DNA of 64,000 nucleotides. Origin: an uncultured Dehalococcoidales bacterium (GTDB taxonomy: Bacteria > Chloroflexota > Dehalococcoidia > GIF9 > UBA5629). This document shows, in pieces, positions 36,733 through 53,916 of this stretch (position 1 is its first letter; each line of letters opens with the position of its first letter). A program made the position numbers and the translations under genes. Below the pieces are notes generated by a model. The model was given only the letters and a program-made list of their open reading frames with translations. It made no database searches and was not told the origin of the DNA. The stretch covers positions 42,576 to 106,575 of the forward strand of contig CAYNVO010000003.1 of assembly GCA_964400675.1 (NCBI GenBank), written 5' to 3'.

Positions 36733-37956
36733 GTGAGTTTGAAGAACAAGAACGTATTCATCACTGGTATAAGCGGCTTTGTCGGTTCAAACATGGCAAA
36801 GCATCTTCTCAATGAAGGGGCCAATGTTTTTGGGCTGGTTAGAAGACGGGCTGATGGCACTATCCCGCAAAACATTAGATATCTGGGAATTGAGAACGAG
36901 GTAGCCCTTGTGGAGGGCGATATGCGGGATATTTCCAGTATTGCTTCCGCATTAGACATCAGCAAACCTGACATTGTCTTTCATCTCGCCGCTCAGTCTT
37001 TCATTCCCAGGTCGTTTTCATGCCCCGGAGAGACGATGGAAGTAAACTGTCTGGGGACAGCCAATCTCCTTGAGGCGATTAGAAATAAAAGCTTGGATGC
37101 AGTAACAGTTTTCGCAGGAAGCAGCGAAGAGTATGGCCTTGTATTCCTTTCGGATTCTCAGTATCAGCAAATCAAGAAAAAACACGGCACGATTTTCCCG
37201 GAGCCGATCAGTATCCCTGAATTGCCTATCACTGAGACCAATCCTCTCCGCCCCATGTCTCCCTATGCTGTCAGCAAGGTCTACGCCGACTATCTAACCA
37301 GAAACTATCATACTTGTTATGGATTGAAAACAATAGTCTCTAGGGGCTTCAATCAGGAAGGGGCCGGCCGAGGCAGTATGTTTGTAACTTCGTCGATTAC
37401 TCGGCAGGCGATGCAATACAAGCGTGGTGAAATCGATAAGCTAGTCATAGGCAATGTTAATGCCTTCAGGGATTGGTCTCATGTCAATGATATTCTGAAG
37501 GGGTACTGCCTGCTGGCTGAGAAAGGCAGATATGGAGACGTTTACAACCAGGGCTCGCAGAGGACCAACTCGGTGCTTAGCTATCTCTTGCTTAGTTTGG
37601 AATGTGCTGGATATGCGGTGAATAGGATTGAAACGCTTGGTGGCAAGAAAGTGGTAGATAATCCCAACGAATTGGATAGCTCAAAGATGTTCGGGCTTGG
37701 CTTTGAAAAGACCAGGGTGGATAAGCTGATGCTAGAAGGTAAATTGGAATTCCAGCTTTCGGATACAGGAATTATTGTCATTACCGATAAGGATAAAATA
37801 GCTGTAGAATTTGATGAAGAAAGGTTCAGGCCAGCTGAAGTACCGATTTTATTAACCAGGACTGCAAAAATGGAGGAGCTTGGCTTTAAAACGCAGCGCA
37901 GCCTTAAAGATATAATTAATGACCAATTGAATTATTTCCTGGATCCAGCTCGCTAG
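36733..37956 (+). CDS. NAD-dependent sugar-nucleotide epimerase/dehydratase (GDP-mannose 4,6-dehydratase-like) with a C-terminal extension.
   Basis: VFITGISGFVGSNMAKHL Rossmann motif, SxxYAxSK region (SPYAVSKVYAD). 407 aa. Confidence 0.65.
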   Translation: MSLKNKNVFITGISGFVGSNMAKHLLNEGANVFGLVRRRADGTIPQNIRYLGIENEVALVEGDMRDISSIASALDISKPDIVFHLAAQSFIPRSFSCPGETMEVNCLGTANLLEAIRNKSLDAVTVFAGSSEEYGLVFLSDSQYQQIKKKHGTIFPEPISIPELPITETNPLRPMSPYAVSKVYADYLTRNYHTCYGLKTIVSRGFNQEGAGRGSMFVTSSITRQAMQYKRGEIDKLVIGNVNAFRDWSHVNDILKGYCLLAEKGRYGDVYNQGSQRTNSVLSYLLLSLECAGYAVNRIETLGGKKVVDNPNELDSSKMFGLGFEKTRVDKLMLEGKLEFQLSDTGIIVITDKDKIAVEFDEERFRPAEVPILLTRTAKMEELGFKTQRSLKDIINDQLNYFLDPAR

Positions 37957-38059
37957 CAAGGCAAACTGATTGTTCGCATGAACTATCAGAGTCGCCTCGT
38001 TATGCCGCGGCGTTGAAACACGATTGGTACTCAGTGAGGCGTTAGTGTAGTATAGGATT

Positions 38060-39184
38060 GTGCAGATGAAGATTGCTGTAATTGTGGGTACACGCCCCGA
38101 GATAATTAAGATGGCTCCGATAGTAAGAGAGCTTGAGAACAATAGAGTAAACTACTTCATCCTTCATACCGGTCAACATTATTCGTATAACCTGGATAGG
38201 GTCTTTTTTGAACAGCTAAGATTACAAGATGCTAAATATAACTTAGAGGTCGGCTCCGGCTCTCATGCAGAACAAACAGGAAAAATACTTATAGGCGTGG
38301 AAAAAACTCTTGAAATTGAAAAGCCTGATATTGTTCTAGTTGAGGGTGACACTAACTCTGTGTTTGCTGGTGCACTGGCAGCAGTTAAGCTCCATATATC
38401 AGTTGGGCATGTCGAGGCTGGGCTGCGAAGTTATGACAGGCAGATGCCCGAGGAAATCAATCGTATTCTGACTGACCATTGCTCCGATTACCTGTTCGCT
38501 CCAACGGAGAAGGCAAAGGCAATCCTCCTCGGCGAGGGCATCCACAACGACAAGATATTTGTAACTGGCAATACCATAGTTGACGCTGTCTACCAAAACC
38601 TAGAAATAGCTAAAAGAAGTTCAAAGTTAGGAAGTTCTAAGTTCGAGGTTAAATACACAACTTCAAACGTAGAACATAGAACCTTGAACCTTGAACCCGG
38701 AAGCTACTTCTTGGTAACCCTTCATCGGCAAGAGAATGTTGATAACCTGGCGAGATTGGCCTCAATCTTGGAGGGGTTAGATAGGGTGGCTTCTGAGTTT
38801 CGTATGCCTGTAATCTATCCCATCCATCCCCGCTCTCAGAAAATGATGGCCAAATTTGGCCATAAACCCCGAAATATTAAGCTAATTGAACCCACCGACT
38901 TCCTGAGTTTTCTCCAGCTTGAGAGCAGTGCCAGGCTTATACTGACCGACTCTGGAGGAGTTCAGGAGGAAGCTTGCATACTCAAAGTCCCCTGTGTTAC
39001 TTTGAGAGACAATACTGAGAGGCCGGAAACCATTGAGGTCGGCGCTAATATACTAGCTGGTGCATCTTCAGATAAAATACTTGATTGTGTCAAGAGTATG
39101 ATTAGCCAAAAAAACAAATGGGCAAATCCATTTGGTGATGGCAAAGCAGGAGAAAGAATAGTAGAAATTATAACAGGAGATTAA
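38060..39184 (+). CDS. wecB: UDP-N-acetylglucosamine 2-epimerase (non-hydrolysing).
   Basis: MKIAVIVGTRPEIIKMAPIV, HVEAGLRSYD, DSGGVQEEA blocks. Contains an in-frame heptamer-repeat tract (38633..38697) in a linker region. Confidence 0.85.
   Translation: MQMKIAVIVGTRPEIIKMAPIVRELENNRVNYFILHTGQHYSYNLDRVFFEQLRLQDAKYNLEVGSGSHAEQTGKILIGVEKTLEIEKPDIVLVEGDTNSVFAGALAAVKLHISVGHVEAGLRSYDRQMPEEINRILTDHCSDYLFAPTEKAKAILLGEGIHNDKIFVTGNTIVDAVYQNLEIAKRSSKLGSSKFEVKYTTSNVEHRTLNLEPGSYFLVTLHRQENVDNLARLASILEGLDRVASEFRMPVIYPIHPRSQKMMAKFGHKPRNIKLIEPTDFLSFLQLESSARLILTDSGGVQEEACILKVPCVTLRDNTERPETIEVGANILAGASSDKILDCVKSMISQKNKWANPFGDGKAGERIVEIITGD
38633..38697. repeat. Inverted pair of GAACCTA-family heptamer arrays (MITE-like) lying in-frame inside wecB.
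   Basis: GTTCTAAGTTCGAGGTT ...25 nt... GTAGAACATAGAACCTTGAACCTTGAACC. Encodes SSKFEVKYTTSNVEHRTLNLEP in a variable WecB linker. Confidence 0.55.
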
Positions 39185-39186
39185 CT

Positions 39187-40110
39187 ATGGCTAAGATATT
39201 AGTTACTGGCGGCAAGGGATTTATTGGCTCAAACCTCGTTCCTGAATTAAACGAACGGGGACACGAAGTCTGGGTATGCGACTTGGGTCATTCAGAGTCC
39301 CCAAACTACACCCGCTGCGATGTTACCGAATACCGCCAGCTTGAGAGAATATTTGAACACCACGACTTTGATTTTGTCTATCATCTGGCGGCAGAATATG
39401 GCCGCTGGAACGGCGAGGACTATTATGAGAACCTGTGGCTGACCAATGTGATAGGTACTAAGAATATGCTTCGGATTCAGGAGCAGAAGAAGTTCCGCAT
39501 GATATTCTTTTCCAGTGCCGAGGTCTATGGAGACTATGACGGTGTAATGAGTGAAGACGTGATGGACAAAATACCCATAAAGCAAATGAACGACTACGCT
39601 ATAACTAAATGGGCAGGAGAGCTACAATGCTTGAACTCTCAAGCCATGTTCGGCACGGAGACTGTCAGGGTTAGACCGGTCAATGCTTACGGTCCGCACG
39701 AGCATTATAGTTCTTACCGCGGTGTAATCCCGGCTTTCATTTACAAGGCTCTGCATGATGAGCCATATACAGTTTATCAGGGGCACAAGCGCATCTTCGA
39801 TTATGTAGAAGATACCTGTCGCACCTTCGCCAACATTGTAGATAACTTCATACCCGGCGAAGTTTATAACATCGGAGGCAAAGAGGAGTGGGAACACGAT
39901 ATCAAATATGTTTCCGACCTGATATTAAAAAATCTGGGCAAAACTGATGCCAAAGTCAACTATAAGGAAGCAGAACCGTTTACCACACGCTTCAAGCACA
40001 TGGACTTCTCCAAATCCAGGAGAGACCTTAAGCACGCCCCCAAGGTTCCGCTGGAGGACGGAATCCCCAAAACTATTGAATGGATGCGCAAAGCCTACGG
40101 ATTTAAGTAG
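39187..40110 (+). CDS. NAD-dependent epimerase/dehydratase.
   Basis: ILVTGGKGFIGSNLV Rossmann motif and YAITK (YxxxK). Confidence 0.75.
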   Translation: MAKILVTGGKGFIGSNLVPELNERGHEVWVCDLGHSESPNYTRCDVTEYRQLERIFEHHDFDFVYHLAAEYGRWNGEDYYENLWLTNVIGTKNMLRIQEQKKFRMIFFSSAEVYGDYDGVMSEDVMDKIPIKQMNDYAITKWAGELQCLNSQAMFGTETVRVRPVNAYGPHEHYSSYRGVIPAFIYKALHDEPYTVYQGHKRIFDYVEDTCRTFANIVDNFIPGEVYNIGGKEEWEHDIKYVSDLILKNLGKTDAKVNYKEAEPFTTRFKHMDFSKSRRDLKHAPKVPLEDGIPKTIEWMRKAYGFK

Positions 40111-40119
40111 CCCAAGCCA

Positions 40120-40140
40120 AACCTTGATATAACCTAGAAC
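40120..40140. repeat. Heptamer-repeat tract (AACCTTGATATAACCTAGAAC).
   Basis: GAACCTA-family units immediately upstream of the GT4 gene start. Confidence 0.4.
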
Positions 40141-40144
40141 TCTT

Positions 40145-41344
40145 ATGAAAATCCTTATCGTCCAGGAGAGCGATTGGCTCAAGAGAGGGCCGCACCAACA
40201 ACATCAGCTAGCAGACCGCCTTTCGCTTAGAGGTCACCAGGTTCGGATTATCGATTACGAGATTTTGTGGCGAGACCAAGACAAAAGGGAGCTTTATTGC
40301 AAACGACAGCTATTCGAAAATGTATTCAAGGTTAATCAAGGGGCGAAGGTCACCGTAATTCGTCCCGGCATAATCAAGATACCTCTCCTTGACTATGTTT
40401 CCATTGTTTTTACTCATCAAAGAGAAATAAACAGGCAAATCGAAGAGTTCAAGCCTGATGTCATTATTGGGTTTAGTATCCTGAATAGTTATCTGGCAGC
40501 AAAGGCAGCCAGGAGTAATGACATTCCCTTCATTTATTACTGGATAGACGTGCTGCACCGCTTGATACCATTTAAGCCTCTACAGTTCATTGGTGAGATA
40601 TTGGAGCACAAAACGCTAATGCAAGCGGACAGGACGCTGACAATCAATGACAAGCTTAAAGACTATGTTATCACTGCCGGTGCCGCAGCTAACAAAACTA
40701 GTGTAATCAGGGCCGGCATAGACGTGGAGCAGTTTAAGCCATCAGCTAGTATTAGCAATTTAAGGAAACAATATGGACTTAAGGAAACTGACATTGTATT
40801 GTTCTTCATGGGCTGGCTCTATCATTTCTCCGGTTTGAAAGAAGTGGCTCAGGAGTTAGCCAAAGAAACTAACAAGAACCTGAAATTGCTAATAGTCGGC
40901 GAAGGCGATGCCTTTGAAGACCTTAAGCGAATACGAAACAAATACAACTTGCAAGATAGGCTCATCTTAGCTGGACAGAAGCCGTATACAGATATGCCAG
41001 CCTTCATCTCTGCTGCCGATATATGCCTGTTACCGGCATATCCTTGGGAGAAAACAATGCATGACATAGTGCCTATTAAGTTGTATGAGTACATGGCTAT
41101 GAAGAAACCGGTGATAGCAACAAGACTGCCCGGAGTTATGAAAGAATTTGGTAAAAACAACGGCGTAGTCTATGTGAGTAAACCTGAGGATGCCATTGAT
41201 AAAGCCAAAAGCCTTGTCAAAGATGGTAAAATAGGAGAGCTTGGCGATAAAGCCAGGAAATTTGTCCAAAAATACAGCTGGGATAGTATAACCGACGGAT
41301 TTGAGAAAATTCTAGAAGAAGTTGTGATGAGTTCTAGGTTCTAA
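40145..41344 (+). CDS. Family 4 (GT-B) glycosyltransferase.
   Basis: 399 aa, GT-B architecture. The C-terminus runs into the heptamer array (...MSSRF*). Confidence 0.7.
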   Translation: MKILIVQESDWLKRGPHQQHQLADRLSLRGHQVRIIDYEILWRDQDKRELYCKRQLFENVFKVNQGAKVTVIRPGIIKIPLLDYVSIVFTHQREINRQIEEFKPDVIIGFSILNSYLAAKAARSNDIPFIYYWIDVLHRLIPFKPLQFIGEILEHKTLMQADRTLTINDKLKDYVITAGAAANKTSVIRAGIDVEQFKPSASISNLRKQYGLKETDIVLFFMGWLYHFSGLKEVAQELAKETNKNLKLLIVGEGDAFEDLKRIRNKYNLQDRLILAGQKPYTDMPAFISAADICLLPAYPWEKTMHDIVPIKLYEYMAMKKPVIATRLPGVMKEFGKNNGVVYVSKPEDAIDKAKSLVKDGKIGELGDKARKFVQKYSWDSITDGFEKILEEVVMSSRF

Positions 41345-41385
41345 GCCAAGGGGTTCTAGGTTAAGAAGTTCTAAGTTCTAGGTAG
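41329..41385. repeat. Heptamer array, GTTCTAG orientation (GTTCTAGGTTCTAAG...GGTTCTAGGTT...GTTCTAAGTTCTAGGTAG).
   Basis: Inverted relative to the array at 41763..41782. The two together bracket the four-helix-bundle gene. Confidence 0.6.
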
Positions 41386-41396
41386 AATATTGAGTA

Positions 41397-41765
41397 ATGA
41401 AAATCGAAAGATTTGAGGACATCGAAGCTTGGAAAGAGGCTCGAAATTTGGTTAGCATGATTTACGATATTTCAAATGAAGAGCTATTTTCAAAAGATTT
41501 CAGCCTGAGGAATCAAGTCCGGGGGGCTTCGGTCTCCGTAATGTCCAACATTGCCGAGGGATTTGATAGGGGGACAAATAGAGAATTCATACAATTCCTC
41601 ATAGTAGCCAGAGCTTCCGCTTCTGAAGTAAAAAGCCAGTTATATGTAGCCTTGGACCGCAACTACATTCATCAAAATAAGTTTGATAAAGTATACCAGC
41701 AAGCAACGAAAGCCATAAGTCTTATTGACGTGTTCATCCGTTACTTGAAAAAACCCAGAACGTAG
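41397..41765 (+). CDS. Four-helix-bundle protein of the 23S-rRNA-intervening-sequence protein family (TIGR02436/PF05635-like).
   Basis: IEAWKEARNLVSMIY...VMSNIAEGFDRGTNREFIQFL..ARASASEVKSQL matches the family core. 122 aa. Confidence 0.75.
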   Translation: MKIERFEDIEAWKEARNLVSMIYDISNEELFSKDFSLRNQVRGASVSVMSNIAEGFDRGTNREFIQFLIVARASASEVKSQLYVALDRNYIHQNKFDKVYQQATKAISLIDVFIRYLKKPRT

Positions 41766-41782
41766 AACCTAGAACCTAGAAC
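41763..41782. repeat. Heptamer array, CTAGAAC orientation (TAGAACCTAGAACCTAGAAC).
   Basis: Perfect 7-bp tandem units. Overlaps the stop of the four-helix-bundle gene and precedes the RBS of the next gene. Confidence 0.6.
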
Positions 41783-41796
41783 GAAGAAGGAGCAAA

Positions 41797-42795
41797 ATGA
41801 GTCAACATATGAGCGAATATAAGGGTAAGAATATCCTCATCACCGGCGGGGCTGGCTGCATTGGCAGCAATCTGACTAAAGCTCTAATAGAAGCCGAAGC
41901 AGGCAAAATAATCGTCCTTGACGACCTTTCAGCGGCTGAAAAATGGAACGTCCCCGTTGACCCAAAGGTGATATTTATCGAGGGCAGCGTATTGGATGAA
42001 GAAGCAGTAAAGAGAGCGTTCTCTGCAAAGCTTGATTTCGTCTTCCATCTGGCAGCTCACTTCGCCAATCAGAATTCAGTTGATAATCCTGAGACCGACC
42101 TCGAGGTCAACGGTCTCGGCACACTCAAGGTTCTGGAATACTCTCACCTTGCCAAGGTAAGCAAGTTTGTCTTTGCATCTTCAGGCTGCTCAGTTTACGG
42201 CAGCCAGGCGCCTCTCCCCCTGAAAGAGGATTACGTATCGCTGCATCTCGACACTCCCTATCAAATCACCAAGCTTCTCGGCGAGCTTTACTGCAATTTC
42301 TTCCACAATTATTATGGGCTGCCTGTAGCTATAGCCCGATACTTCAATGTTTATGGTCCCGGTGAAATCCCCGGTGCTTACCGTAACGTCATTCCCAATT
42401 TCATGTGGTGGGCATTACACAAAATGCCCCTACCTGTGACTGGCACAGGAGCGGAAACCAGAGATTTCACCTATGTTGAAGACATAGTTGACGGCACGTT
42501 ACGACTTGGGGCAATATCTCAGGCTGTGGGTGATGCCTTTAACCTCGCGTCAGAAACAGAAACCAAGGTAATTGATATAGCTAATATGGTTAATGAGATA
42601 ACGGGAAATCCGTCAGGTGTTACCTTTAAACCTCGCCGCGACTGGGACCAGATTACGCGCCGGAAAGCCTCTATAGAAAAAGCCAGGAAAGTTCTCGGTT
42701 ATGAGCCAGGAACAAAAATAAAAGACGGAGTCAAGAAAGTGTATGAGTGGGTTGTAGCCAATCGTGATAAAATTGAGGAATGTGCCAGATTTTAA
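41797..42795 (+). CDS. NAD-dependent epimerase/dehydratase (UDP-sugar 4-epimerase / decarboxylase-like).
   Basis: ILITGGAGCIGSNL and YQITK. The C-terminus ...KIKDGVKKVYEWVVANRDKIEECARF has a paralogous remnant at 49922..49996. Confidence 0.75.
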   Translation: MSQHMSEYKGKNILITGGAGCIGSNLTKALIEAEAGKIIVLDDLSAAEKWNVPVDPKVIFIEGSVLDEEAVKRAFSAKLDFVFHLAAHFANQNSVDNPETDLEVNGLGTLKVLEYSHLAKVSKFVFASSGCSVYGSQAPLPLKEDYVSLHLDTPYQITKLLGELYCNFFHNYYGLPVAIARYFNVYGPGEIPGAYRNVIPNFMWWALHKMPLPVTGTGAETRDFTYVEDIVDGTLRLGAISQAVGDAFNLASETETKVIDIANMVNEITGNPSGVTFKPRRDWDQITRRKASIEKARKVLGYEPGTKIKDGVKKVYEWVVANRDKIEECARF

Positions 42796-42885: not shown

Positions 42886-43308
42886 TTAATATCCTGTTCT
42901 AACAATCAAGAAACAGCCAACAACCACGAAGGCAATCCCTATCCAATGCAATATAGTTATACTTTCTTTCAAATAAATCAAGGCAAATATCGCTGTTAAT
43001 ACATAGGCCAAGCTCATCAGGGGGTAAATAAAGCTGACATTTAGAGTTGACATTGCACCAAGCCACAGGACTAATGCGATTCCGTAGCATAATATCCCGG
43101 CAATGATACGGGGGTTGGTGAATATTCTGGAGAGTGTATCAAGGTTGAAGAGCTGCCCCATACTTTTGATTTCTCCGACTTGATTCACACCACTTTTCAT
43201 CAGGATTTGTCCCATTGCCGCACCGAATATGCAGAGCAACACCAATAGTAGAGCAAACAACATAGCACTCCTTTTCTTGAACCTTGGTAGCCCAAATTTT
43301 CTTTTCAA
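42886..43308 (-). CDS. EamA/SMR-like four-TM membrane protein (ArnE/ArnF-like polyprenyl-sugar flippase subunit candidate).
   Basis: 140 aa, four predicted TM helices. Lies in the glycan cluster. Confidence 0.55.
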   Translation of the reverse strand: MKRKFGLPRFKKRSAMLFALLLVLLCIFGAAMGQILMKSGVNQVGEIKSMGQLFNLDTLSRIFTNPRIIAGILCYGIALVLWLGAMSTLNVSFIYPLMSLAYVLTAIFALIYLKESITILHWIGIAFVVVGCFLIVRTGY

Positions 43309-43393
43309 TTTTTACCCAGCAGTGTAGATTTTCTTACCGTTAAATCAGAGCTTGATATTAGGCATGCCAGCTCCTTAATGTCAATAATATAGG

Positions 43394-44293
43394 TTATGCC
43401 TTTTTAGCTAACAATTTGATCTCATATTGCATATTAAAAAGCTTGGCAAAAAAATACATTACCCCTATTAACATTTTCGTGCCCCAGTTCCATCTCAGGT
43501 TCTGCAAGGGTATTTCACTCTTTCCAAGGTAAATGACCTCAAATCCTGTCTCACGAAGCATTTGCGTTAGTGTCTGTTTGGAAAAATGAGTGATATGATA
43601 GATTGGATGTACTAACTTAATAGGTTTTTTCAACTTCCCGCCTGTGATTTTGTACAAAATGTCAGCCAGTCTAGGAATAAGGCTATTCTCGTCTACTGTC
43701 AAAATAAACAATAATCCATTGTCTTTCAGTATCCGTAGGCACTCTTCCAAGATTTGCCTGGGATTTGGGACATGTTCAATGGTATCCCACATTGTAACAA
43801 CATCAAAGTATGCTGATGGGAAATTAATGTCTTGCAATTCTTTTGTGTCCACTTTAATTCCAAATTTCTCCTTGGCATAGTTTGATGCATATTCCGAAAT
43901 ATCCACTCCGTATGGCTCCCAACCTTTGTTTTTTGCCATATCCAGAAAAACGCCTGTGGCACAACCGACATCCAATATTCTCCCCGCTTCCTTAGAGGAC
44001 ATTATAAGAGCTAATCCCTGTTGGAAGTTGGCTAATCTGGGCTCTTCTTTATACTTGGCATAGTCCTCGTGGCACTTTGAAAAAAATTTGACTTGGAACT
44101 CTTCGAAGTACTCGGCAGAATATAATTCTACAAGATTAATGTATAGCGGCTCAGTAAACACAAGGTGGCAATTGCGGCATTTTAATATATTGTATTCTCT
44201 CAGTTCATAAAGCCGAGAAATATCTTGTGAGTCACACAGTTGGCATTTAACATCGTTAAATTTATCAGGCTCTTTATAAGTATCCTCTGACAA
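43394..44293 (-). CDS. Class I SAM-dependent methyltransferase with an N-terminal Cx2C-Cx2C zinc ribbon.
   Basis: KCQLCDS...CRNCH ribbon. Motif I LDVGCATGVFLD. Confidence 0.75.
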   Translation of the reverse strand: MSEDTYKEPDKFNDVKCQLCDSQDISRLYELREYNILKCRNCHLVFTEPLYINLVELYSAEYFEEFQVKFFSKCHEDYAKYKEEPRLANFQQGLALIMSSKEAGRILDVGCATGVFLDMAKNKGWEPYGVDISEYASNYAKEKFGIKVDTKELQDINFPSAYFDVVTMWDTIEHVPNPRQILEECLRILKDNGLLFILTVDENSLIPRLADILYKITGGKLKKPIKLVHPIYHITHFSKQTLTQMLRETGFEVIYLGKSEIPLQNLRWNWGTKMLIGVMYFFAKLFNMQYEIKLLAKKA

Positions 44294-44336
44294 GATGATT
44301 ACCTGCCTAATAATTCATTAGTTCGAGCTTTTGATG

Positions 44337-45287
44337 CTATTTGTTGCAGTGCATACGGAACCAGTTGATAGTATTTTTCAATCCATCCTCAAGGTTGACT
44401 GAAGGCTGCCACCCTAGAATTTCCTTGGCTTTAGTATTATCACAAAAATGGTGCCATGCTTCTCCAGGCCGATAATCTAATGCCCCTACTCGCGGTTTTA
44501 GTGAGCTCTCCATTAAACGCAAAACCATTTCCACAACATCTATAATCTTGTACTCTAATCCATTGCCAATGTTTATTATTTCACCAATAGCACGTGGCGT
44601 AACTGAAGCTTTTATGTAAGCCTCAACGATATCATCAACATAATTGAATTCTCTTGTCTGCTCCCCCTTGGTCATTTCAAATTCCTCATCCATGATAGTC
44701 TTTTTAATGAGCGATGGAATCAGCAAGCTGCCTTCCTGCCCAGGTCCATAAGTCAGAAATGGCCTCAAAGTAATAATAGGTGCTCCATGCGTTTTGTGTA
44801 ACATCTGGCAAAAAGCAGTGGCAGATACCTTAGAAGCAGAGTATGGAGAAGAAGGATTAGGAATTTGATCTTCGCGGAACGGAGCAGGATTGTCACCATA
44901 ATCTTCAGAAGCCCCGGTATTTATAAAGCAATCGTAATTAATCCAATTTAAAGCTCGTAAAAGGTTAAGTGTTCCTCTTAAATTTACCTCTACCATCTCG
45001 TCAATTAGTTCTGGGGAGCGGGTGGTAGCAACGTATGCAGCGAGGTGAAATATTTTCTGCGGTTTGATAACAGCAATAACTGTTCTTATAGTTGTAAAAT
45101 CTCTTATATCACTATGATGAATGATAATCTCATTGCTTATATCTCCAAGCCTCCAAAGATTGGAACCAGCTCTGGCTAAACCATGCACCTCAGCACCTTC
45201 TCTCACCAGTCTTCTAGCCAAATGGGAACCTATAAAACCAGAGACGCCGGTAACCAGCACCTTGGTATTCCTCAATGTTTCAGTCAT
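44337..45287 (-). CDS. NAD-dependent epimerase/dehydratase.
   Basis: [18 protein letters not shown] and YSASK. Confidence 0.75.
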
Positions 45288-45634
45288 TTAACCTTGCCCT
45301 GGGCTTTAAAAAATTCTTGATACCAAGCGATGGTTTCCGTCAGTCCCTCTTCGACTGTATATTTGGGTCTCCAGCCCAGAACATCCCGGGCTTTCTGAGC
45401 TGAAAGATATTGGTGTTTTATCGCTCCTTTGGGTGTATTGAGTATCTCGGGTTGCAAGTCTGTTCTTTTCATCAGTTCAAGTATCGTTTGAACGATCTGA
45501 AGGACGCTCATCTGGGTCTCGTTACTGAAATTGAATGCCTCCCCGCAGATACTTGCATCATCCATTTTTTCCGCCAACAAAAGATATGCATCTACAGCAT
45601 TTAAAATAATAAGGCATTGACTTTTCACTTGCAA
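45284..45634 (-). pseudogene. C-terminal fragment of a CDP-/NDP-hexose 4,6-dehydratase-type epimerase. The N-terminal ~230 aa are absent.
   Basis: The 116-aa ORF aligns only to the C-terminal third of SDR epimerase/dehydratases (GEAFNFS...[17 protein letters not shown]). A TTG/alternative start is used, an in-frame TAA lies just upstream, and there is no room for an N-terminus before the next gene. Confidence 0.5.
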
Positions 45635-45657
45635 ATTTGATGCGCGCGTTCTTATAT

Positions 45658-46365
45658 TTAAAAGCCCCTTATTTTATATTTTAATATATTCCCCAAGAAT
45701 TCGAAAAAAGTCACCGGACTAACACTTGATTTGCCTTCCTTTCTACGTTCAAAAGCAACAGGTATCTCACCCACTTTTAATCCCAAACGGTTCGATTTAA
45801 TCATTATTTCAGCATCAAGAAACCAATCTTTGCAAGTGAGTTGCAATCCCTCATAGGCTTCGCGACTCATAATTTTGGGAGACCGGTTTACATCTCTGCT
45901 TTGCACAGGGAAGAAAACGGGGAGAATTAAATTGTACACTCTGGATTGAATCCTTCTTAATATGGAGACTTCGTTGCTGCCCCGCTTGGCCTTGCACAGA
46001 TCCAGTTTTTCTTCCACCAATTTTTTGAATATTCTTACTACGTCTTCTGCCTTTATCTGTCCGTCTCCAGGTGAAAAACCTAAATATTCACCTCTAGCTT
46101 TCTTAAGACCGCATATTATCCCCCACCCGTAGCCTTCATTTACGGGCACATTTACCACCGTTATTTCTTTATTGGAGCTCGCCAACCTTTGTAAAATCTC
46201 CGGTGTCCCATCAGTGGACCCGTTATTGACAAGTACTAGTTCTAACAAAACTCCGTTGGCTTTAAACCCACGCATTAGGTCCAATGCGACATGTTCAACA
46301 ACCCTCTCCTCATTGTAAAGAGGCACTATCAGAGACAAGAGCAAACCACTCCTCTCTTTTACCAC
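45658..46365 (-). CDS. Family 2 glycosyltransferase (Dpm1/GtrB-like).
   Basis: [11 protein letters not shown]...[10 protein letters not shown]. Confidence 0.75.
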
Positions 46366-46439
46366 TGAGCAATTTACCTCAAACCATAATTACATTAGCA
46401 AACTGGCAGCCCAGTCTGGTCGCAAATAAAAGCACCCTC

Positions 46440-47081
46440 TCATTTCTGACAAACATAAAGAATTCTGGCAAAAAATGGAATTGGCGACCTTATAATTTTG
46501 AATTTATATCCGATACTCGCCAAAAGAATTTGCCAGTCATAAGGCTTGCGGAAATGACTTTTTTCACGGTTTAGAAACATGTCGACCCAATAACTTGTAT
46601 GTAATGGTTCAGCAGTCGGGTCAATTTCGGCAATGAGCAATGTGCCGCCTTTCTCCAAGCTCGAAAAAATGTTTTCTAAGGTGAGCTGCTGTTCCGCCGG
46701 TTTAAGGTGATGCAGAAAATCCACCATCACAGCGCCGCTACAGGGTAGCAAATCGCATTCTATGGCATTCTTCAATGTGAAGCCGATATTTCCCCGTTTA
46801 CCCACCGTTTTCGAGGCGATTCCAATTCTTCTTTGGTCAAGGTCAATGCCGATGACCTTTCTTGCAGGAAAGCGCAAGGCCAGGTAATTTGACAATAGAC
46901 CGTAACCGCAGCCGATGTCAAATATTACACCGCGCTGAGGCAAAAAGTCTGAATATTCGTCGAAGTTCAGGAATTTTGTTCTGACCTTAACATAAAGCTT
47001 GACACATATCCCCTGCCCAGCATACAAGTCGGCAAGCTTACTATACAAATTATTTGGCATTTCGTTTCTCCGCCAGCGCAA
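46440..47081 (-). CDS. Class I SAM-dependent methyltransferase.
   Basis: Motif I VIFDIGCGYGLLSNYLA...VIGIDLD. Confidence 0.7.
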   Translation of the reverse strand: MRWRRNEMPNNLYSKLADLYAGQGICVKLYVKVRTKFLNFDEYSDFLPQRGVIFDIGCGYGLLSNYLALRFPARKVIGIDLDQRRIGIASKTVGKRGNIGFTLKNAIECDLLPCSGAVMVDFLHHLKPAEQQLTLENIFSSLEKGGTLLIAEIDPTAEPLHTSYWVDMFLNREKSHFRKPYDWQILLASIGYKFKIIRSPIPFFARILYVCQK

Positions 47082-47952
47082 TCAATGAGGCTCCAAAAGG
47101 CAAGGAGAAGTACCTTATCAGCCAGGTCTCAAGTCTGGTTAGCTGCAGGAATGTTTCGTTAATTACGGGGATTGTTTTAACCTCGATAGCTTCATCTATG
47201 GTACGGTTAATATTTCTCTTATCAAAGAGTCTGTTGCTCATTCTAATGGCAGCCAACACCGGGAAAAGTGATGACACGTAATATGATATTTTCTTGATCG
47301 AGAACCCGCTGCGCTGAAGTTTAGTAGCCAGTTCCGATTTATCATATCTACGTACGTGGTTTGCTATTCTATCATGGTGACTCCAGAGAAATCTATGAGC
47401 AGGAACGGTCAGAATCAAATATCCTGCAGGCTTTAAGGCTCGATTAATTTCTCTAAGCGCCGCTTCATCATCGCTGATATGCTCCAGCACATCGAACACC
47501 CCTATAATGTCCCAGTTATTAAGGAAGGGCAAAGAGAGTATGTCTGCTTGGTACAAATCAACAGATGAAGACCTTTGCCGGCAAAATCTCAGCCCCTCCA
47601 TTAGAATATCCATGCCCGCTATATTGATGCCGCTGCTTTTCAAATGCACCAGGACACTCCCATTGCCACAACCGATTTCAAGCATTACGGAGCTGGCTAA
47701 ATCAGGTACATTTCTTCTTAGAACATCAAGGATCAATTCTCGTCTTCCGACCTGCCAGAAGTGTTTCTGCTCCATTTTGAAAAGGAATTCAAATATTTCA
47801 GGGTCAAAACTATCGACCTTTCTCCCTTTCTCTACAAATGAAGGAATGCCGTCAACTACAGGGTAATGGATATGGCAGGCACGGCAAAAATATTTATCGC
47901 TGCTCTTCTCTAGTGCGCTGCGACATTTAGGGCAATACAACACCTGCTGCAT
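47050..47952 (-). CDS. Class I SAM-dependent methyltransferase with an N-terminal Trm112-like zinc ribbon.
   Basis: CPKCRS...CRACH ribbon. Motif I LEIGCGNGSVLVHL. Confidence 0.7.
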   Translation of the reverse strand: MQQVLYCPKCRSALEKSSDKYFCRACHIHYPVVDGIPSFVEKGRKVDSFDPEIFEFLFKMEQKHFWQVGRRELILDVLRRNVPDLASSVMLEIGCGNGSVLVHLKSSGINIAGMDILMEGLRFCRQRSSSVDLYQADILSLPFLNNWDIIGVFDVLEHISDDEAALREINRALKPAGYLILTVPAHRFLWSHHDRIANHVRRYDKSELATKLQRSGFSIKKISYYVSSLFPVLAAIRMSNRLFDKRNINRTIDEAIEVKTIPVINETFLQLTRLETWLIRYFSLPFGASLIALAEKRNAK

Positions 47953-48383
47953 AGGAATTACTCGCCGGCAATTATCTGTCTTCCGAAGGAATACTCGTAA
48001 ACCTTGTAAAATTGATAGTTTTTCTCAGAGTCAAGGGCTATTGTCCTCACTAGCGCGCCAGACATGACATGGGACACTAATTCTGTATAGCTCCAAGTAT
48101 ACCCCATGTTAAGATCTTTACACAATCGTATTTCATACCGCCAACAGCCTTCAAGCCGCTAGAACAAAGGCTCCTCTTACGTTATTGTAGTAACAGCTTA
48201 TTGACCTCTTATGATATAATTTTGCCCATATTAGGTTGCTGAAATTTACATCGCTAATACCTGTGGCATCGGGAATCAAATGACGGTCTTACATGAGTAC
48301 TTTTGGGGGTAGCATCTCAGTCTATCGTTGGCCAGACAATCAAGCGGTCTTACTTGTCATGAGGAGCCAAGAAGGCCAAATCA

Positions 48384-49922
48384 ATGAAACTACTTGATAG
48401 AATCAAATCAAACAAATCCCTAATCCTTATCCTTTGTCTTATATTTGTCTTGGCTCTGGGTGTTAGGGTGGGCATACTATGTAATACCTACGATGTACAC
48501 CCCGCTAATATTGTACTTGGAATGACCCAAGCAAAAATATTAGTCGAGGGGCTGGAATCCCTTACTGAAGCGAATGAGTTTCAAGGTGCTCTTTCCTCCT
48601 TAGGTATGACTATTGGTTCGTTTTGGGGACATTCTATGCAAAACGCTGTGATGCTAGCCGGGACTTATTGGGTTTTCGGAGAATACGACCCTATTTGTGT
48701 ACGGGTAATTTGGTTAATCATTGATTCCTTCGGTTGCCTCCTGATGTTCTTAATTGGGAAGGAATTGTTCAGCAGGAGAATTGGATTAATCGCAGCCTTT
48801 TTATATGCTATATGGTTACCTATTGCATATTTATCCACCTGGATGTTCTACTATAATTTGATGCCATTTATAACATTGCTTTCTCTGTACTTCTTTATAA
48901 AGGCAGTACGAACGGGGGCGATAAAGTTTTATGTCCTATCAGCTCTCTCTATTGGAATTGGTTGTTACTATTCACCAATTATTATGTTTTTGCCATTGAT
49001 GTTCGGTCTGGCTTTGTTCATATACAACCTTGGGAAATCAAATTTCCGAAAACAGGTTGCTAATGTAGCTAAAATGACTGCTGTTATGGTGGCAGTAGTC
49101 TTTCTAATTATATCCCCAACCTGGGGTATAATTCATTATATAAGGCCTGAGCTTAAGGATTTTACTATGAGAGGAGGCATCCTTTGGGGCGGTATGTGGG
49201 AAGGCTTTGGGGAGTTTGGGGAAAACCCGGTTGGAGCTGTGTTCAATGATTATGTAACTTATGACCAGGTAACAAAAGAGTGGGGCTACGATTCTGTAAC
49301 TTATAACCAAGAAAAAGGAGAGTGGGAATACGAGGTGGAAATGTGGGGCCCTGAATACGATGAGATATTTAAGCCACGGGTGTTAGACGCCATAAGAGAA
49401 CATCCGGCGTGGTGGCTGAGCCTCCTGGCCAGGAGAGTTCCCCACAGCATAGTCTATACCAGCCAGCTTGGAATACAATATTACCCTCGAGACGCGGAGG
49501 GTAATCGTATAGAGAGGAAATGTCAATATCCGACTATTGGCCCCATTATTGCAATGATAAAGGGTGGTACATTTTGGGAATTTGTTAAAAGTTGTCCTTA
49601 CGCTGCTTTTTATACGGGACTTATGTATCTGTTTGCCGTTGTGCCTGTTTTGCTTAGCGTCGTTGGTATCTGGGTTATGAGAAAGAACTGGAGACCATTG
49701 ATTTTGGTAGCGGCGGCTTCAATATACTTTGCTGCCGTTCACATAGTTATGTTTGTTTCCTCATATAAAAGCATGGTGGCGGGAAATTTGGCCTATATTA
49801 TTTTCAGTGCCATTGCCCTGGATTATATCTATAGAAGAATACGGGGTGCCGACATCAGAACTGACGAATTAGCTACGCCATCAACAGGAAAGCCATCGGC
49901 TATAGTCCGAAGACAAAAATAA
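48384..49922 (+). CDS. Polytopic GT-C fold glycosyltransferase (GT39/GT83 PMT_2-like).
   Basis: 512 aa with more than 10 TM helices and a PMT_2-like N-terminal region. The 3' end (...RRQK*) runs into sequence homologous to the epimerase C-terminus, so this looks like a recombination junction. Confidence 0.5.
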   Translation: MKLLDRIKSNKSLILILCLIFVLALGVRVGILCNTYDVHPANIVLGMTQAKILVEGLESLTEANEFQGALSSLGMTIGSFWGHSMQNAVMLAGTYWVFGEYDPICVRVIWLIIDSFGCLLMFLIGKELFSRRIGLIAAFLYAIWLPIAYLSTWMFYYNLMPFITLLSLYFFIKAVRTGAIKFYVLSALSIGIGCYYSPIIMFLPLMFGLALFIYNLGKSNFRKQVANVAKMTAVMVAVVFLIISPTWGIIHYIRPELKDFTMRGGILWGGMWEGFGEFGENPVGAVFNDYVTYDQVTKEWGYDSVTYNQEKGEWEYEVEMWGPEYDEIFKPRVLDAIREHPAWWLSLLARRVPHSIVYTSQLGIQYYPRDAEGNRIERKCQYPTIGPIIAMIKGGTFWEFVKSCPYAAFYTGLMYLFAVVPVLLSVVGIWVMRKNWRPLILVAAASIYFAAVHIVMFVSSYKSMVAGNLAYIIFSAIALDYIYRRIRGADIRTDELATPSTGKPSAIVRRQK

Positions 49923-49996
49923 AAGACGGCATCACGGAGGTTCACCGGTGGGTAAAGTCAAACTGGGACAAGATAGAAGAGTGCGCCAGATTTTAG
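49922..49996 (+). pseudogene. 25-codon C-terminal remnant of an epimerase paralogous to 41797..42795.
   Basis: Encodes KDGITEVHRWVKSNWDKIEECARF*, compared with KIKDGVKKVYEWVVANRDKIEECARF* at the end of 41797..42795. Identical 17-mer ACAAAAATAAAAGACGG at both loci (42705..42730 and 49913..49929). Confidence 0.55.
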
Positions 49997-50060
49997 GCTA
50001 AGGGAAAAACAATTGTGATTTTGTCATACGTGCGAGGAGCCATTCAGCAGAAGGACGACG

Positions 50061-50133
50061 TGGCAATCTCACAGTCGAGGGCGCATCAGTGAGATTGCTT
50101 CGCTCCGCTCGCAATGACAGTTTGAGCTACGGA
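50061..50133. repeat. Small repeat element with a 10-bp perfect inverted repeat (GCAATCTCAC-16 nt-GTGAGATTGC) and a CTGTCATTGCGAGCGGAGCGAAGCAATCTC core on the minus strand. Flanked by GGACGAC direct repeats.
   Basis: Same core as the 10.7-kb array. GGACGAC at 50053-50059 and 50131-50137 could be a target-site duplication. Confidence 0.5.
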
Positions 50134-50153
50134 CGACATCTAAAGGAGAACAG

Positions 50154-51233
50154 ATGACAGATAAGCTTAAAGTTGCCATAGTGGGTTGTGGTGCTGTAGC
50201 CGAAAAGCGCCATATTCCCGGTTTCGCCAGATTGAAAGACAGGGTTGCTGTGCGGGCTGTATGTGATAAAAATGAAGAATTGGCAAGACAAGTCGCTTTG
50301 AGACATCGAATTCCCAGAGTTTTTGTTAGCCAGACAGAGATGCTCAAGGCTGAAAAAGTCGACATAGTTGACGTCTGCACTCCACCTCAGATACACGCTC
50401 CCATAGCAGTTGAAGCGCTTGAAGCCGGTTGCCATGTGCTGATGGAAAAGCCCATGGCACTTAATACTGCTGACTGTGACAAAATGATAGAGGCAGCAAC
50501 AAAGAACAACCGCAAACTTTGCGTTGTTCATAACGTGCTTTTTCATCCCCCGCTTATCAAAGCCAGGGAGCTGGTCAAAGCGGGAGCCATAGGCAACTTC
50601 ATAGGTATGAGAATCCTATTATCAGACCCCAAAGACGAAATGATAATGCGCCAGGACTACTGGATACACAAGCTGCCCGGTGGATTGATTGGTGAAACCG
50701 GCCCTCACCCTGTTTACGTCTCCCTGGCTTTTCTGGATAAGGTTAATAACGTAGAAGTATTTGCCAAAAATTACCTGGAGCATCCCTGGGCACCTTTTGA
50801 TGAGTTCAGGCTCGAACTTGATGCTGATAATGGCATGAGCTCAGTGGCTATCTCATATTCCGGTGAACGATATGCTGCGGAGGTAGAGATATTCGGCTCA
50901 GAAGGTGCTCTTTATATAGACCTCCAGAGCATGCTGCTGGTGAAACACGGCACTAAGAAAACGCTCAGTTCTGCTAAGTTAGTCTCAACATCTTTCAGTA
51001 CGGTAACGCAAATTATCGGCGGTCTCATAGCCAACGGGTTCAAGACAACCACTGGCCAGTTCAGAGTGGGACATGAAAAAATAGTGGAGCTATTTGTCGA
51101 TAGCATTATTAAAGATACCACTCCGCCTGTTACAGGTGAAGAAGGGCGGGAAGTTATAAGGGTAATGGAGATGATAGTTGACAGGCTTTATGGCAAATAC
51201 GGTCGCCCTCAACCATCTGAACCTAGAACCTAG
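50154..51233 (+). CDS. Gfo/Idh/MocA family NAD(P)-dependent sugar oxidoreductase.
   Basis: VAIVGCGAVAEKRHIPGF Rossmann N-terminus, EKP motif (LMEKPMA). The C-terminus ends inside the heptamer array. Confidence 0.8.
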   Translation: MTDKLKVAIVGCGAVAEKRHIPGFARLKDRVAVRAVCDKNEELARQVALRHRIPRVFVSQTEMLKAEKVDIVDVCTPPQIHAPIAVEALEAGCHVLMEKPMALNTADCDKMIEAATKNNRKLCVVHNVLFHPPLIKARELVKAGAIGNFIGMRILLSDPKDEMIMRQDYWIHKLPGGLIGETGPHPVYVSLAFLDKVNNVEVFAKNYLEHPWAPFDEFRLELDADNGMSSVAISYSGERYAAEVEIFGSEGALYIDLQSMLLVKHGTKKTLSSAKLVSTSFSTVTQIIGGLIANGFKTTTGQFRVGHEKIVELFVDSIIKDTTPPVTGEEGREVIRVMEMIVDRLYGKYGRPQPSEPRT

Positions 51234-51258
51234 AACTTAGAACCTAGAACTTTGAAAC
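51219..51258. repeat. Heptamer array GAACCTAGAACCTAGAACTTAGAACCTAGAACTTTGAAAC.
   Basis: About 5.5 tandem 7-bp units spanning the stop of the oxidoreductase and the start region of the methyltransferase. Confidence 0.6.
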
Positions 51259-52053: not shown

Positions 52054-53916
52054 ATGTCTGGAATATGCGGCGCAATAGGAATCGAGAACGAGGGACTATT
52101 AAAGAGGATGGCGTTGCTCATGGCGCACAGGGGAGATATAGTCGAAGTCTCCGTCAATAATGGTGCAACGATTGCGGTAATCCGCCGCACCGATGAGCCT
52201 GGACTGTATAACAAGGGAGCAACGTCTATTGCCCTTGACCACGATATTTATGCCATAGGCAACCGGCTGATTGAAGACAATTCAGAAATTTACCAGCACC
52301 TCGTAACTACTAATTCATCTAGCGACACTGTAAAGGTCTTGCGGGGAAGCTTCGCTCTCGCCATAGTGAACACAGGCAGCAGACACACAAGGCTAACTTT
52401 AGCCCGTGACATATACGGCACCAGGTCGATGTATTACTTGCAGACCGGGCAGGCGCTCTTTTTTGCCTCAGAGATGAAATGTTTCCTGGCTCTTGAGGAA
52501 TTTAAGCTAGAAGTCAACCCCGAAGCACTGGGCTACTACCTGAGTTGCGGCTTTATCTCTGATAATCAGACTTTGCTCAAACAAGCTTACAAGGTCTTGC
52601 CGGGAGAGATGGTGGAGTTTGAAAACGGAAAGACTAATTACCTGAAGTATTGGAGCCCAATGCCTTGTGAGCAGGCACCTTTAGATATAAACCACTGGAT
52701 TCAAGCCACCTGGGCTAATCTTAAAAACGCCACCACAACCCAATTGCCTAGGAAAGAAGGTAAGGTAGGAGTAGCACTGAGCGGGGGACTAGACTCATCT
52801 TTGATTGCAGCTACTCTAAAACATGTCAGCCGAGACCCCAAATTAATAAGCTTCTCCTTAGACTATGGTGATGGTGGTAGTTCTGAGCTGGACATGGCTG
52901 TAAAGATATCTAAATATCTGGATATAGATTGTCGCATCGTCACACTAAACACAGAGAAAATCATAAGAGACCTGGAGCAACTGCAATGGCTCTATGATGA
53001 ACCTCTGGTGAAGTTCACCTTCATACCAACCTATTACCTTATGAACGCAGCCAGGGAGGAGGTGAAAACATTATTCACCGGTGATGGTGGAGATGAGCTG
53101 TTTATAGGCTATAGAAATGACTACTGGGAAGACCCCATGATAATCAAGTTTTTCTCGAAGCTGGGGGCAATCAGGAAGCCTGCCTTGAAAGCGGGTAGGG
53201 GGCTGGCTATGCCCCTGGCCAACCGGACCGGCTCAAAAACTCTATCGTTAGCAGCAGAATTTTTCACCAGAGAGCATGCCAGTCATCCTGAATGGCAATA
53301 CAGAATCGCCTCTCGAGTTTTTCATCCTTATTTCCCAGAGGAAGATTTGGCGAGACTGCTCAATGATGCCAGTTCGCGGGGGTTAACTGACAGCACAGTC
53401 AAAACCATAAATATGGCGAATGCCAGCAGCAGTATCGAGAAAATATCACATGTCATGGTTAGCGGTGAACTCCCCAATGACCTGCTCAGGTTGGACAAAT
53501 CTGCGGCGGCTACCGGGCTGAAAATAAGGTCTCCGCTGCTTGACCCAGAGATGACTAATTTTGCCCTGAGTATTCCGATATCACTGAGGCACCGGCATGG
53601 AACAACCAAATATTTGCTCAGGCAGTTAATTAAGAGCTACGACTTGCTGCCGCCGGAGGTAGCTGCTGGTAAGCAGAAAGCCGGGTTAACGGCACCGATA
53701 CATCAGTGGCTAACTGAGAGTTCATCCCGGGACTACTTTGATACCTTGCTGCAGTCCAGCGCCAGCCTCCTCAACCTGGATATGGCTTATATGCATAGGT
53801 TCTATCCCCCAAGAACATATACCCAAACCTTGAAAGCCTGGGCGTTGATAGGCATACTATTGTGGCTGAAAACTCTCACTACCAAATCCGGAAGGTCTTT
53901 TCATGACATCACCTAA
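52054..53916 (+). CDS. Asparagine synthase (glutamine-hydrolysing)-like amidotransferase (WbpS/AsnB-like).
   Basis: N-terminal MSGICGA GATase-II-like region and SGGLDSSLIAA PP-loop. Start set at ATG 52054. Confidence 0.75.
   Translation: MSGICGAIGIENEGLLKRMALLMAHRGDIVEVSVNNGATIAVIRRTDEPGLYNKGATSIALDHDIYAIGNRLIEDNSEIYQHLVTTNSSSDTVKVLRGSFALAIVNTGSRHTRLTLARDIYGTRSMYYLQTGQALFFASEMKCFLALEEFKLEVNPEALGYYLSCGFISDNQTLLKQAYKVLPGEMVEFENGKTNYLKYWSPMPCEQAPLDINHWIQATWANLKNATTTQLPRKEGKVGVALSGGLDSSLIAATLKHVSRDPKLISFSLDYGDGGSSELDMAVKISKYLDIDCRIVTLNTEKIIRDLEQLQWLYDEPLVKFTFIPTYYLMNAAREEVKTLFTGDGGDELFIGYRNDYWEDPMIIKFFSKLGAIRKPALKAGRGLAMPLANRTGSKTLSLAAEFFTREHASHPEWQYRIASRVFHPYFPEEDLARLLNDASSRGLTDSTVKTINMANASSSIEKISHVMVSGELPNDLLRLDKSAAATGLKIRSPLLDPEMTNFALSIPISLRHRHGTTKYLLRQLIKSYDLLPPEVAAGKQKAGLTAPIHQWLTESSSRDYFDTLLQSSASLLNLDMAYMHRFYPPRTYTQTLKAWALIGILLWLKTLTTKSGRSFHDIT

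Follow-up and report, generated by a model that had tools for sequence, protein, structure and literature searches.

The locus described here raises a simple question: why does a gene for a 122-aa four-helix-bundle (4HB) protein, of a family known from intervening sequences (IVSs) of 23S rRNA, lie between two genes of sugar metabolism and between inverted arrays of a 7-base repeat? The gene is located within a co-directional glycan-synthesis cluster of a member of the Dehalococcoidia (Chloroflexota), and we analyzed it in a stretch of 64 kb, hereafter called the window (feature coordinates in Table 1). We consider it likely that the unit is an IVS-type selfish cassette that lives in an operon instead of in 23S rRNA and that has hairpin-only relatives. 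The cassette architecture, the gain and loss of the gene and the generality of the layout are well supported.

A 4HB gene bounded by heptamer arrays

The 122-aa protein matched the profiles PF05635 (E = 8e-31, 106.8 bits against a cut-off of 33.8; residues 7-110 aligned to profile positions 1-104 of 106) and TIGR02436 (E = 1.4e-29, 102.5 bits against a cut-off of 24). The initial annotation, made from the letters of the sequence, had called the protein TIGR02436-like, and this assignment was confirmed by both profiles being above their cut-offs. Sequence homology was also detected to the solved four-helix bundles PDB 2GSC (XCC0516; E = 1.2e-12) and 2RLD (E = 0.0035). The GC content of the gene was 40.4%, as against 46.3% for the window. 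A defence-system or phage identity of the protein was rejected, there being no match in PADLOC or PHROGs.

The arrays were found where the initial annotation had placed them, with GTTCTAG-type units upstream and CTAGAAC-type units downstream of the 4HB gene. The left array is broken up by two 8-nt spacers and ends with two degenerate units of the opposite sense, GTAGAAT ATTGAGT (41382-41395), directly before the ATG. The right array has a period of 7 and 4.4 copies in tandem-repeat analysis, and it overlaps the AAGGAG (41787-41792) that serves the downstream epimerase gene as ribosome-binding site. Both arrays had been said to overlap the stop codons of the adjacent genes. This was correct for the left array, which contains the stop TAA of the glycosyltransferase gene (41342-41344) and whose first two units form the last codons and stop of that gene, but the stop within the right array is the 4HB gene's own TAG (41763-41765). 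When the 14-mer GTTCTAGGTTCTAG was searched with up to 3 mismatches, 19 matches were obtained in the window against 4.65 ± 2.17 expected (none of 100 shuffles reached 19), and they were concentrated at four places.

Two readings of the units themselves were rejected. A module that provides stops in all frames, with a TAG in each GTTCTAG and a period of 7 that cycles through the frames, holds at this locus and is not general, because units such as GTCCGAG and GTCACGA contain no stops. A HutP-type (UAG-N4)3 binding site was rejected as well; the core conserved across taxa is GTTCT/AGAAC or another unit, not UAG. Scans of the locus for an intrinsic terminator or a promoter of its own gave nothing beyond chance, the single promoter-like site (9/12 match) being at 41361-41388.

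The arrays had been expected to pair into a stem, and such pairing was predicted in both the minimum-free-energy and the centroid folds of 41322-41795. The duplex between the two arms had an energy of -36.2 kcal/mol, compared with -14.8 ± 3.5 kcal/mol when one arm was shuffled (none of 500 shuffles as low), and the cofold of the arms had -39.1 kcal/mol. By predicted fold and duplex energy, the insert is thus enclosed, like an IVS, by terminal inverted repeats that form a stem.

Orthologous loci were retrieved by way of orthologues of the neighbouring glycosyltransferase. The closest relative, L003, whose flanking genes were 88-97% identical to the window at the nucleotide level, lacked the 4HB gene, as did L004 at the orthologous site. 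With the gene missing, the arrays of both loci directly adjoin one another and make up a single small palindromic hairpin, whose centre in L004 is GTTCAACGTTGAAC. A frameshifted copy with the same flanks was found in L005/L006, and an intact copy with the same flanks in L208, so that the gene shows the sporadic presence among close relatives that is typical of IVSs. The polymorphism expected for a 457-bp unit was therefore seen at the orthologous site, but only about 410-425 bp (the open reading frame (ORF) and a few units) varied, and both arrays remained at the empty sites. Where the gene is present, its ATG is immediately preceded by one or two units with the sense of the downstream array, and same-sense units consequently bracket the ORF. 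A supposedly discordant pair of 4HB protein P0181 and glycosyltransferase P0002 on one contig was discarded, L207 being a different locus.

The 4HB gene diverged far less between these lineages than its surroundings did. Compared with L005, the gene was 92.6% identical at the nucleotide level (84% at third positions), whereas five flanking genes were 75-81.5% identical (48-63%); compared with L208, the corresponding values were 94.0% (87%) and 74-81% (47-59%). Sliding-window identity peaked at 92-97% over the ORF and dropped to about 70-88% on both sides, and in the comparison with L208 the raised identity reached about 300 bp into the glycosyltransferase gene. Taken with the low GC content and the lack of the gene in the nearest relative, the raised identity over the ORF indicates that the gene is much younger than its surroundings and was recently exchanged between lineages, probably by homologous recombination.

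Gene-less arrays and the layout across the family

The initial annotation had also reported a miniature form without the gene inside wecB. This hairpin is indeed in frame, its fold having an energy of -21.1 kcal/mol (z = -2.5), and it is polymorphic among the relatives: the 15-codon indel was present in the window, L003 and L005 and missing in L004 and L208. The third array, at the junction of the GFO/IDH/MocA oxidoreductase and methyltransferase genes, contains the stop of the oxidoreductase gene; this junction carried a complete hairpin with two arms in L003 and an array in L005, and it was bare in L004. Further gene-less arrays were found at other junctions in the relatives. The hairpins act as an element of their own. 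Like small palindromic repeats, the heptamer elements are both dispersed, with four sites within 13 kb of the window, and polymorphic, at wecB and at two junctions. No target-site duplication was recognisable at them, the ends of the elements being themselves repeats, and no transposase was present at the locus. In L003 (10100-10230), the 332-aa epimerase gene has a new 3' end, and its stop is followed by a heptamer array and then by an out-of-frame relic of the original C-terminus (RDKIEECARF*). The array thus marks the precise joint of a recombination scar.

To survey the repeat independently of the gene, (TAGAACN)3 was searched over one genome per species, which gave at least 120 stretches. 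The matches listed came from Acidobacteriota, Shewanella, Vibrio, Pseudoalteromonas, Geomonas, candidate-phyla bacteria, Chloroflexota, Bacteroidota and others. Among them, many loci were two-armed hairpins with loops of 4-120 nt, and several heptamer loci occurred per genome in other taxa (for example, at least four in the metagenome-assembled genome (MAG) CALMFJ01). A 4HB ORF was present in 8 of 120 of these loci and abutted the array in 4 of the 8. Two pairs of a forward and then a reverse arm were 466-500 bp apart (L020 and L066), and each enclosed a 4HB gene. In L016, a 4HB gene on the opposite strand lies between two complete hairpins. Hairpin-only elements in other genomes were mostly 3' of genes (8 convergent, 9 co-directional and 2 divergent).

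The layout was then sought from the side of the protein, in 80 metagenome loci chosen solely by protein similarity (50-79% identity), 79 of which were scored for the period of their flanks. Tandem periodicity of 7 or 9 bases in the flanks exceeded the 99th percentile of control windows in 56 of the 79 loci, and the best period was 7 or 9 almost everywhere. GTYC units were enriched upstream of the 4HB genes (1.85 per 100 nt against a background of 0.67; sign test 42:17, p = 0.0015) and GRAC units downstream (2.74 against 0.89; 53:8, p = 3e-9). The upstream arrays peaked 25-75 nt before the start codon, and array length ranged from 3 to 23 units. GTTCT-type arrays in these loci were confined largely to the vicinity of the gene, 22 of 25 being within about 200 bp of it and 3 in the remaining 90% or so of the sequence.

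The units varied by lineage (GTCCGAG, GTCACGA, GTTGCGG, GGGTTTGTT and other 9-mers), while the two sides stayed matched. Energies of cognate and non-cognate RNA duplexes differed (p = 2e-6), a comparison blurred by shared units and GC content, and a 6-mer test of cognate flanks was used in their place. The reverse complement of the commonest downstream 6-mer occurred at least twice in the cognate upstream flank at 18 of 50 loci, as against 3.1% for non-cognate flanks (p = 4e-15). Moreover, the repeat period followed the protein tree: the nearest protein neighbour shared the period in 52 of 54 loci (permutation p ~5e-4), and the two paralogues of L208, 48% identical, were associated one with 7-mers and the other with 9-mers. 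The second of these L208 genes (524-910; 128 aa) is located at the GlmS/GT2 junction and is flanked by the 9-base units GAGTTCNNN / NNNGAACTC.

Both neighbours were co-directional with the 4HB gene in 38 of the 53 loci in which both were called, which fits a promoter-less insert in operons. Typical neighbours were sugar-nucleotide enzymes, DNA methylases and other genes of variable islands. No rRNA context was found for the relatives' genes in 20 loci. In three unrelated metagenome or MAG loci (L066, L143 and L146), a 4HB cassette with GTTCT-type arrays occupied one same junction, after a gene ending in ...LGYL* and before an APS-kinase-like gene beginning with QEGFVIWFTG.

Cultured isolates gave the same picture. 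Arrays were present at all seven 4HB genes inspected (in Nostoc, Calothrix, Anabaena, Pseudanabaena, Picosynechococcus and Riemerella, the genes being on plasmids), six of them inverted and one, in Pseudanabaena, direct. Some of these cassettes lie between cas6 and cas4, between cas10 and cmr3, or between ribonucleotide-reductase genes. The array-flanked cassettes inside cas operons were those on plasmids of Anabaena sp. 90, Pseudanabaena galeata and Picosynechococcus PCC 7003 (L214, L215 and L216), at cas6/cas4 twice and at cas10/cmr3 once. Tandem heptamers known as short tandemly repeated repetitive (STRR) sequences are abundant in the intergenic DNA of heterocystous cyanobacteria. The heptamer arrays around 4HB genes on Nostoc, Anabaena and Calothrix plasmids resemble them, but the units are not the canonical STRR1-3 sequences, and no published link between STRR and the 4HB family was found in the literature. 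In a large clustering screen, "23S rRNA IVP" was scored as CRISPR-associated (PMC10910872). Either the position in cas operons or the arrays themselves may be behind this score; the arrays may explain such CRISPR-array-associated scores in large screens, although several 4HB genes do sit inside cas operons.

Likeness to intervening sequences and competing explanations

IVSs of 23S rRNA were discovered in 1990, and their origin has been in question since (PMC4990558). In Coxiella burnetii, the IVS has a 28-bp terminal stem with an S23p ORF in its loop, the ATG is preceded by three tandem copies of the heptamer GACAGAT in a number that varies by strain, the ribosome-binding site is weak, the GC content is below that of the host, and RNase III cuts have been mapped in the stem, at the first repeat (PMC4990558). 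IVSs occur sporadically, and horizontal transfer was inferred in Leptospira (PMC4990558). The likeness to rRNA IVSs that the initial annotation had proposed was supported by this comparison. The cassette shares with the S23p-bearing IVSs of Coxiella and Leptospira the protein family, the ORF in the loop of an inverted-repeat stem, tandem heptamers of variable copy number before the ATG, a weak ribosome-binding site, a GC content below that of the host, sporadic presence and signs of horizontal transfer. It differs in being inserted between two protein genes of a glycan operon and not into helix 9, 25 or 45 of 23S rRNA, in its heptamer (GTTCTAG instead of GACAGAT) and in leaving a heptamer hairpin at the empty site; furthermore, cutting by RNase III, mapped in Coxiella, is putative in the present cassette. 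The element would work like an S23p-bearing IVS, but its position sets it apart from the rRNA IVSs. In the literature searched, no description of repeat arrays around this protein family was found other than that of the Coxiella IVS (PMC4990558).

We propose that a promoter-less S23p/PF05635 gene is nested in a heptamer stem, whose 5' arm is (GTTCTAG)n and whose 3' arm is (CTAGAAC)n, and that the arms would pair in the read-through transcript of the operon. By analogy with the S23p-bearing IVSs, RNase III would cut the stem, which would let the host genes on either side tolerate the insertion. The gene would be gained or lost by recombination within the repeat arrays. Slippage or crossover between the same-sense units that directly precede the ATG and those that follow the stop could remove or install the ORF precisely. 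As for the pentameric protein, it would most likely bind its own repeat arrays.

Several observations weigh against this proposal. The predicted stem is not continuous, consisting of 13 bp and then some 14 bp with bulges, and for the unit as a whole the fold reached only z = -2.4. Arrays of the same orientation on both sides, which cannot form a stem, were found in 7 of 50 loci, and the direct arrays of Pseudanabaena likewise form none. A hairpin within the coding sequence of wecB would be harmful if it were efficiently cut. The arrays are not private to the 4HB gene and may be an independent element; a reservation attached to the initial annotation, that the heptamers could be a generic spacer motif, is partly borne out by the gene-less arrays at other junctions. 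Other points speak against free transposition: further copies with the same flanks had been envisaged, and no second cassette was found in the 64-kb window. Close relatives of the gene (at least 89% identity) were all at the same locus, their shared junction, in L127 as well, being upstream of the 332-aa epimerase gene. Finally, the tract of about 300 bp that extends into the glycosyltransferase gene looks like ordinary homologous recombination and not like a site-specific event.

Whether the cassette belongs to something larger is a more tentative matter. It is possible, though we would not lean on it, that PF05635 genes with period-matched arrays form a widespread, undescribed class of selfish cassettes in operons and 23S rRNA, whose proteins recognise their own 7- or 9-base units for self-regulation, protection from RNase III or movement. 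Such a class would have colonised glycan, restriction-modification, cas and ribonucleotide-reductase operons and would have left hairpin-only derivatives at gene ends and inside coding sequences. The rRNA IVS would then be merely the special case that was noticed first. The S23p/4HB family is very large (7,969 of the 8,000 candidates scored in a single search had E <= 1e-10) and has no known function outside diversity-generating retroelements (DGRs). The anatomy of an IVS (ORF, heptamers and stem) is the normal context of this family, in operons of many phyla and with gain and loss at orthologous sites, so that the nature of the IVS becomes a testable question. The layout may also explain why 4HB genes break metagenome assemblies.

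A second explanation concerns what the arrays are for. They might primarily be binding sites of the pentameric 4HB protein, one unit per subunit in the manner of TRAP or HutP, which would make the module an RNA- or DNA-binding system that regulates itself or the operon, not a substrate of RNase III. We regard this as doubtful but worth keeping in view, and it is compatible with mobility. It would account for the way in which the period of 7 or 9 tracks the protein phylogeny, down to the two paralogues of L208, for the peak of upstream arrays 25-75 nt before the start codon, and for the subclass with direct orientation that cannot form a stem. The Avd protein of DGRs binds nucleic acid together with reverse transcriptase. 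Avd is a relative of the 4HB protein within PF05635, the family found more often than any other next to DGR reverse transcriptases (PMC10053308). Also in favour of this reading, the family forms toroidal pentamers (PMC4990558). However, arrays of 3 to 23 units are not centred on five, hairpin-only elements occur far from any 4HB gene, and in Coxiella the S23p protein is probably not made at all (PMC4990558). The likeness to Avd lies in the homologous four-helix-bundle fold and the pentamers. The genes up to 10 kb to the left and right of the 4HB gene include no reverse transcriptase (RVT family), no template/variable repeat pair was present over that distance, and flanking heptamer arrays are not a described feature of DGRs.

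It is unlikely that the 4HB gene is an old, vertically inherited resident that was repeatedly deleted, its similarity between lineages reflecting constraint and not transfer. The common junction of all close relatives, upstream of the 332-aa epimerase gene, agrees with such a history, and the bracketing of the ORF by same-sense units would permit precise deletion. But constraint on the protein cannot account for a third-position identity of 84-87% in the gene against 47-63% in its flanks, the L005 copy is a frameshifted pseudogene and still 92.6% identical, and it is the closest relative, L003, that lacks the gene while more distant ones have it.

Slightly less probable still is the explanation that the heptamers are a generic intergenic palindrome, comparable to repetitive extragenic palindromic (REP) sequences and stabilising or insulating the 3' ends of genes, with the 4HB gene between two of them by chance. 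The gene-less arrays at the GFO/methyltransferase junction, in wecB and at further junctions of the relatives, the persistence of arrays at the empty sites and the location of hairpin-only elements mostly 3' of genes are what it would predict. It does not sit well with the 22 of 25 GTTCT-type arrays that were close to a 4HB gene in loci picked by protein, with the association of arrays and gene across phyla in spite of many different units, or with the repeat period tracking the protein tree. Rickettsia palindromic elements insert in frame in coding sequences, and Correia elements are substrates of RNase III. The hairpin-only forms described above resemble these and the REP elements and their mosaic arrays (REP/BIME) in being short palindromes at gene ends, one of them in frame in a coding sequence, but they consist of tandem 7-base units and are tied to one family of cargo genes. 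No transposase of the REP-associated (RAYT) type was seen at the locus.

Movement as a site-specific cassette by a dedicated recombinase or transposase, like that of an integron cassette or an insertion sequence, is very improbable: a promoter-less ORF with an imperfect palindrome, in sense orientation within an array of co-directional genes, recalls an integron cassette with attC, but no integrase or transposase was present within 10 kb on either side, the arrays stand on both sides of the ORF, GTTCTAG / CTAGAAC do not fit the attC core GTTRRRY / RYYYAAC, no target-site duplication was recognisable at the locus, and the recombination tract extends into the neighbouring gene.

Coordinates and surroundings of the cassette

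The order of genes in the cluster is GlmS-like, GT2, 407-aa dehydratase, wecB, 307-aa epimerase, GT4 glycosyltransferase, 122-aa gene and 332-aa epimerase. The C-terminus of the glycosyltransferase differed among the relatives along with the heptamer array.

Table 1. The 4HB gene, its neighbours and the heptamer elements, in positions of the window
Feature	Position	Strand	Remarks
4HB gene (S23p / 23S_rRNA_IVP / Avd-like)	41397..41765	+	122 aa, intact; PF05635 and TIGR02436 profile matches
Left flank	41329..41396	+	five GTTCTAG/GTTCTAA units, starts 41331, 41338, 41353, 41368, 41375
Right flank	41752..41792	+	CCAGAAC GTAGAAC CTAGAAC CTAGAAC GAAGAAG at 41755-41789
Upstream neighbour, GT4-family glycosyltransferase	40145..41344	+	heptamers encode last four codons (SSRF) and stop
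Downstream neighbour, NAD-dependent sugar epimerase/dehydratase	41797..42795	+	332 aa; same strand as 4HB gene
Gene-less heptamer hairpin within wecB frame	38618..38697	+	encodes ...RSSKLGSSKFEVKYTTSNVEHRTLNLEP..., net in-frame insertion of 15 codons
Degenerate remnant	40121..40140	+	AACCTTG ATATAAC CTAGAAC, in 34-bp spacer between 307-aa epimerase and glycosyltransferase
Third array	51216..51257	+	CTAGAAC-type x 4.6, one orientation only; GFO/IDH/MocA oxidoreductase–methyltransferase junction

Identity between the window (36733-41344) and L003 was mosaic: the dehydratase and wecB genes were 97% identical, the 307-aa epimerase gene 92%, and the glycosyltransferase and 332-aa epimerase genes 88%, which points to recombination inside the glycan cluster. 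The Pfam match of the 407-aa GDP-mannose-dehydratase-like protein (36733-37956) was split into two parts, suggestive of an internal insertion; the length of the protein was equal in all relatives.

A block of about 7.3 kb (42886-50154) between the 332-aa epimerase and GFO oxidoreductase genes was missing at the corresponding place in L003, L004 and L005. It carries EamA, three methyltransferase, SDR-type epimerase/dehydratase and GT2 genes on the minus strand and PMT_2 on the plus strand. The GC content of the block was 41.8%, compared with 46.3% for the window, and its edges were without heptamer arrays.

No rRNA was found in the window, the sole Rfam match being a cobalamin riboswitch (RF00174; 20313-20438, minus strand; 38.5 bits, E = 3e-6). 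Other short repeats of the window were located in coding sequence. The 18-bp unit CACCACCAACAACCGGAA is repeated 7.3 times with 97% identity at 55314-55444, inside an ORF of 828 aa (53903-56389), and shorter runs were present at 49248-49333 (42 bp x 2) and 10709-10767 (24 bp x 2.5).

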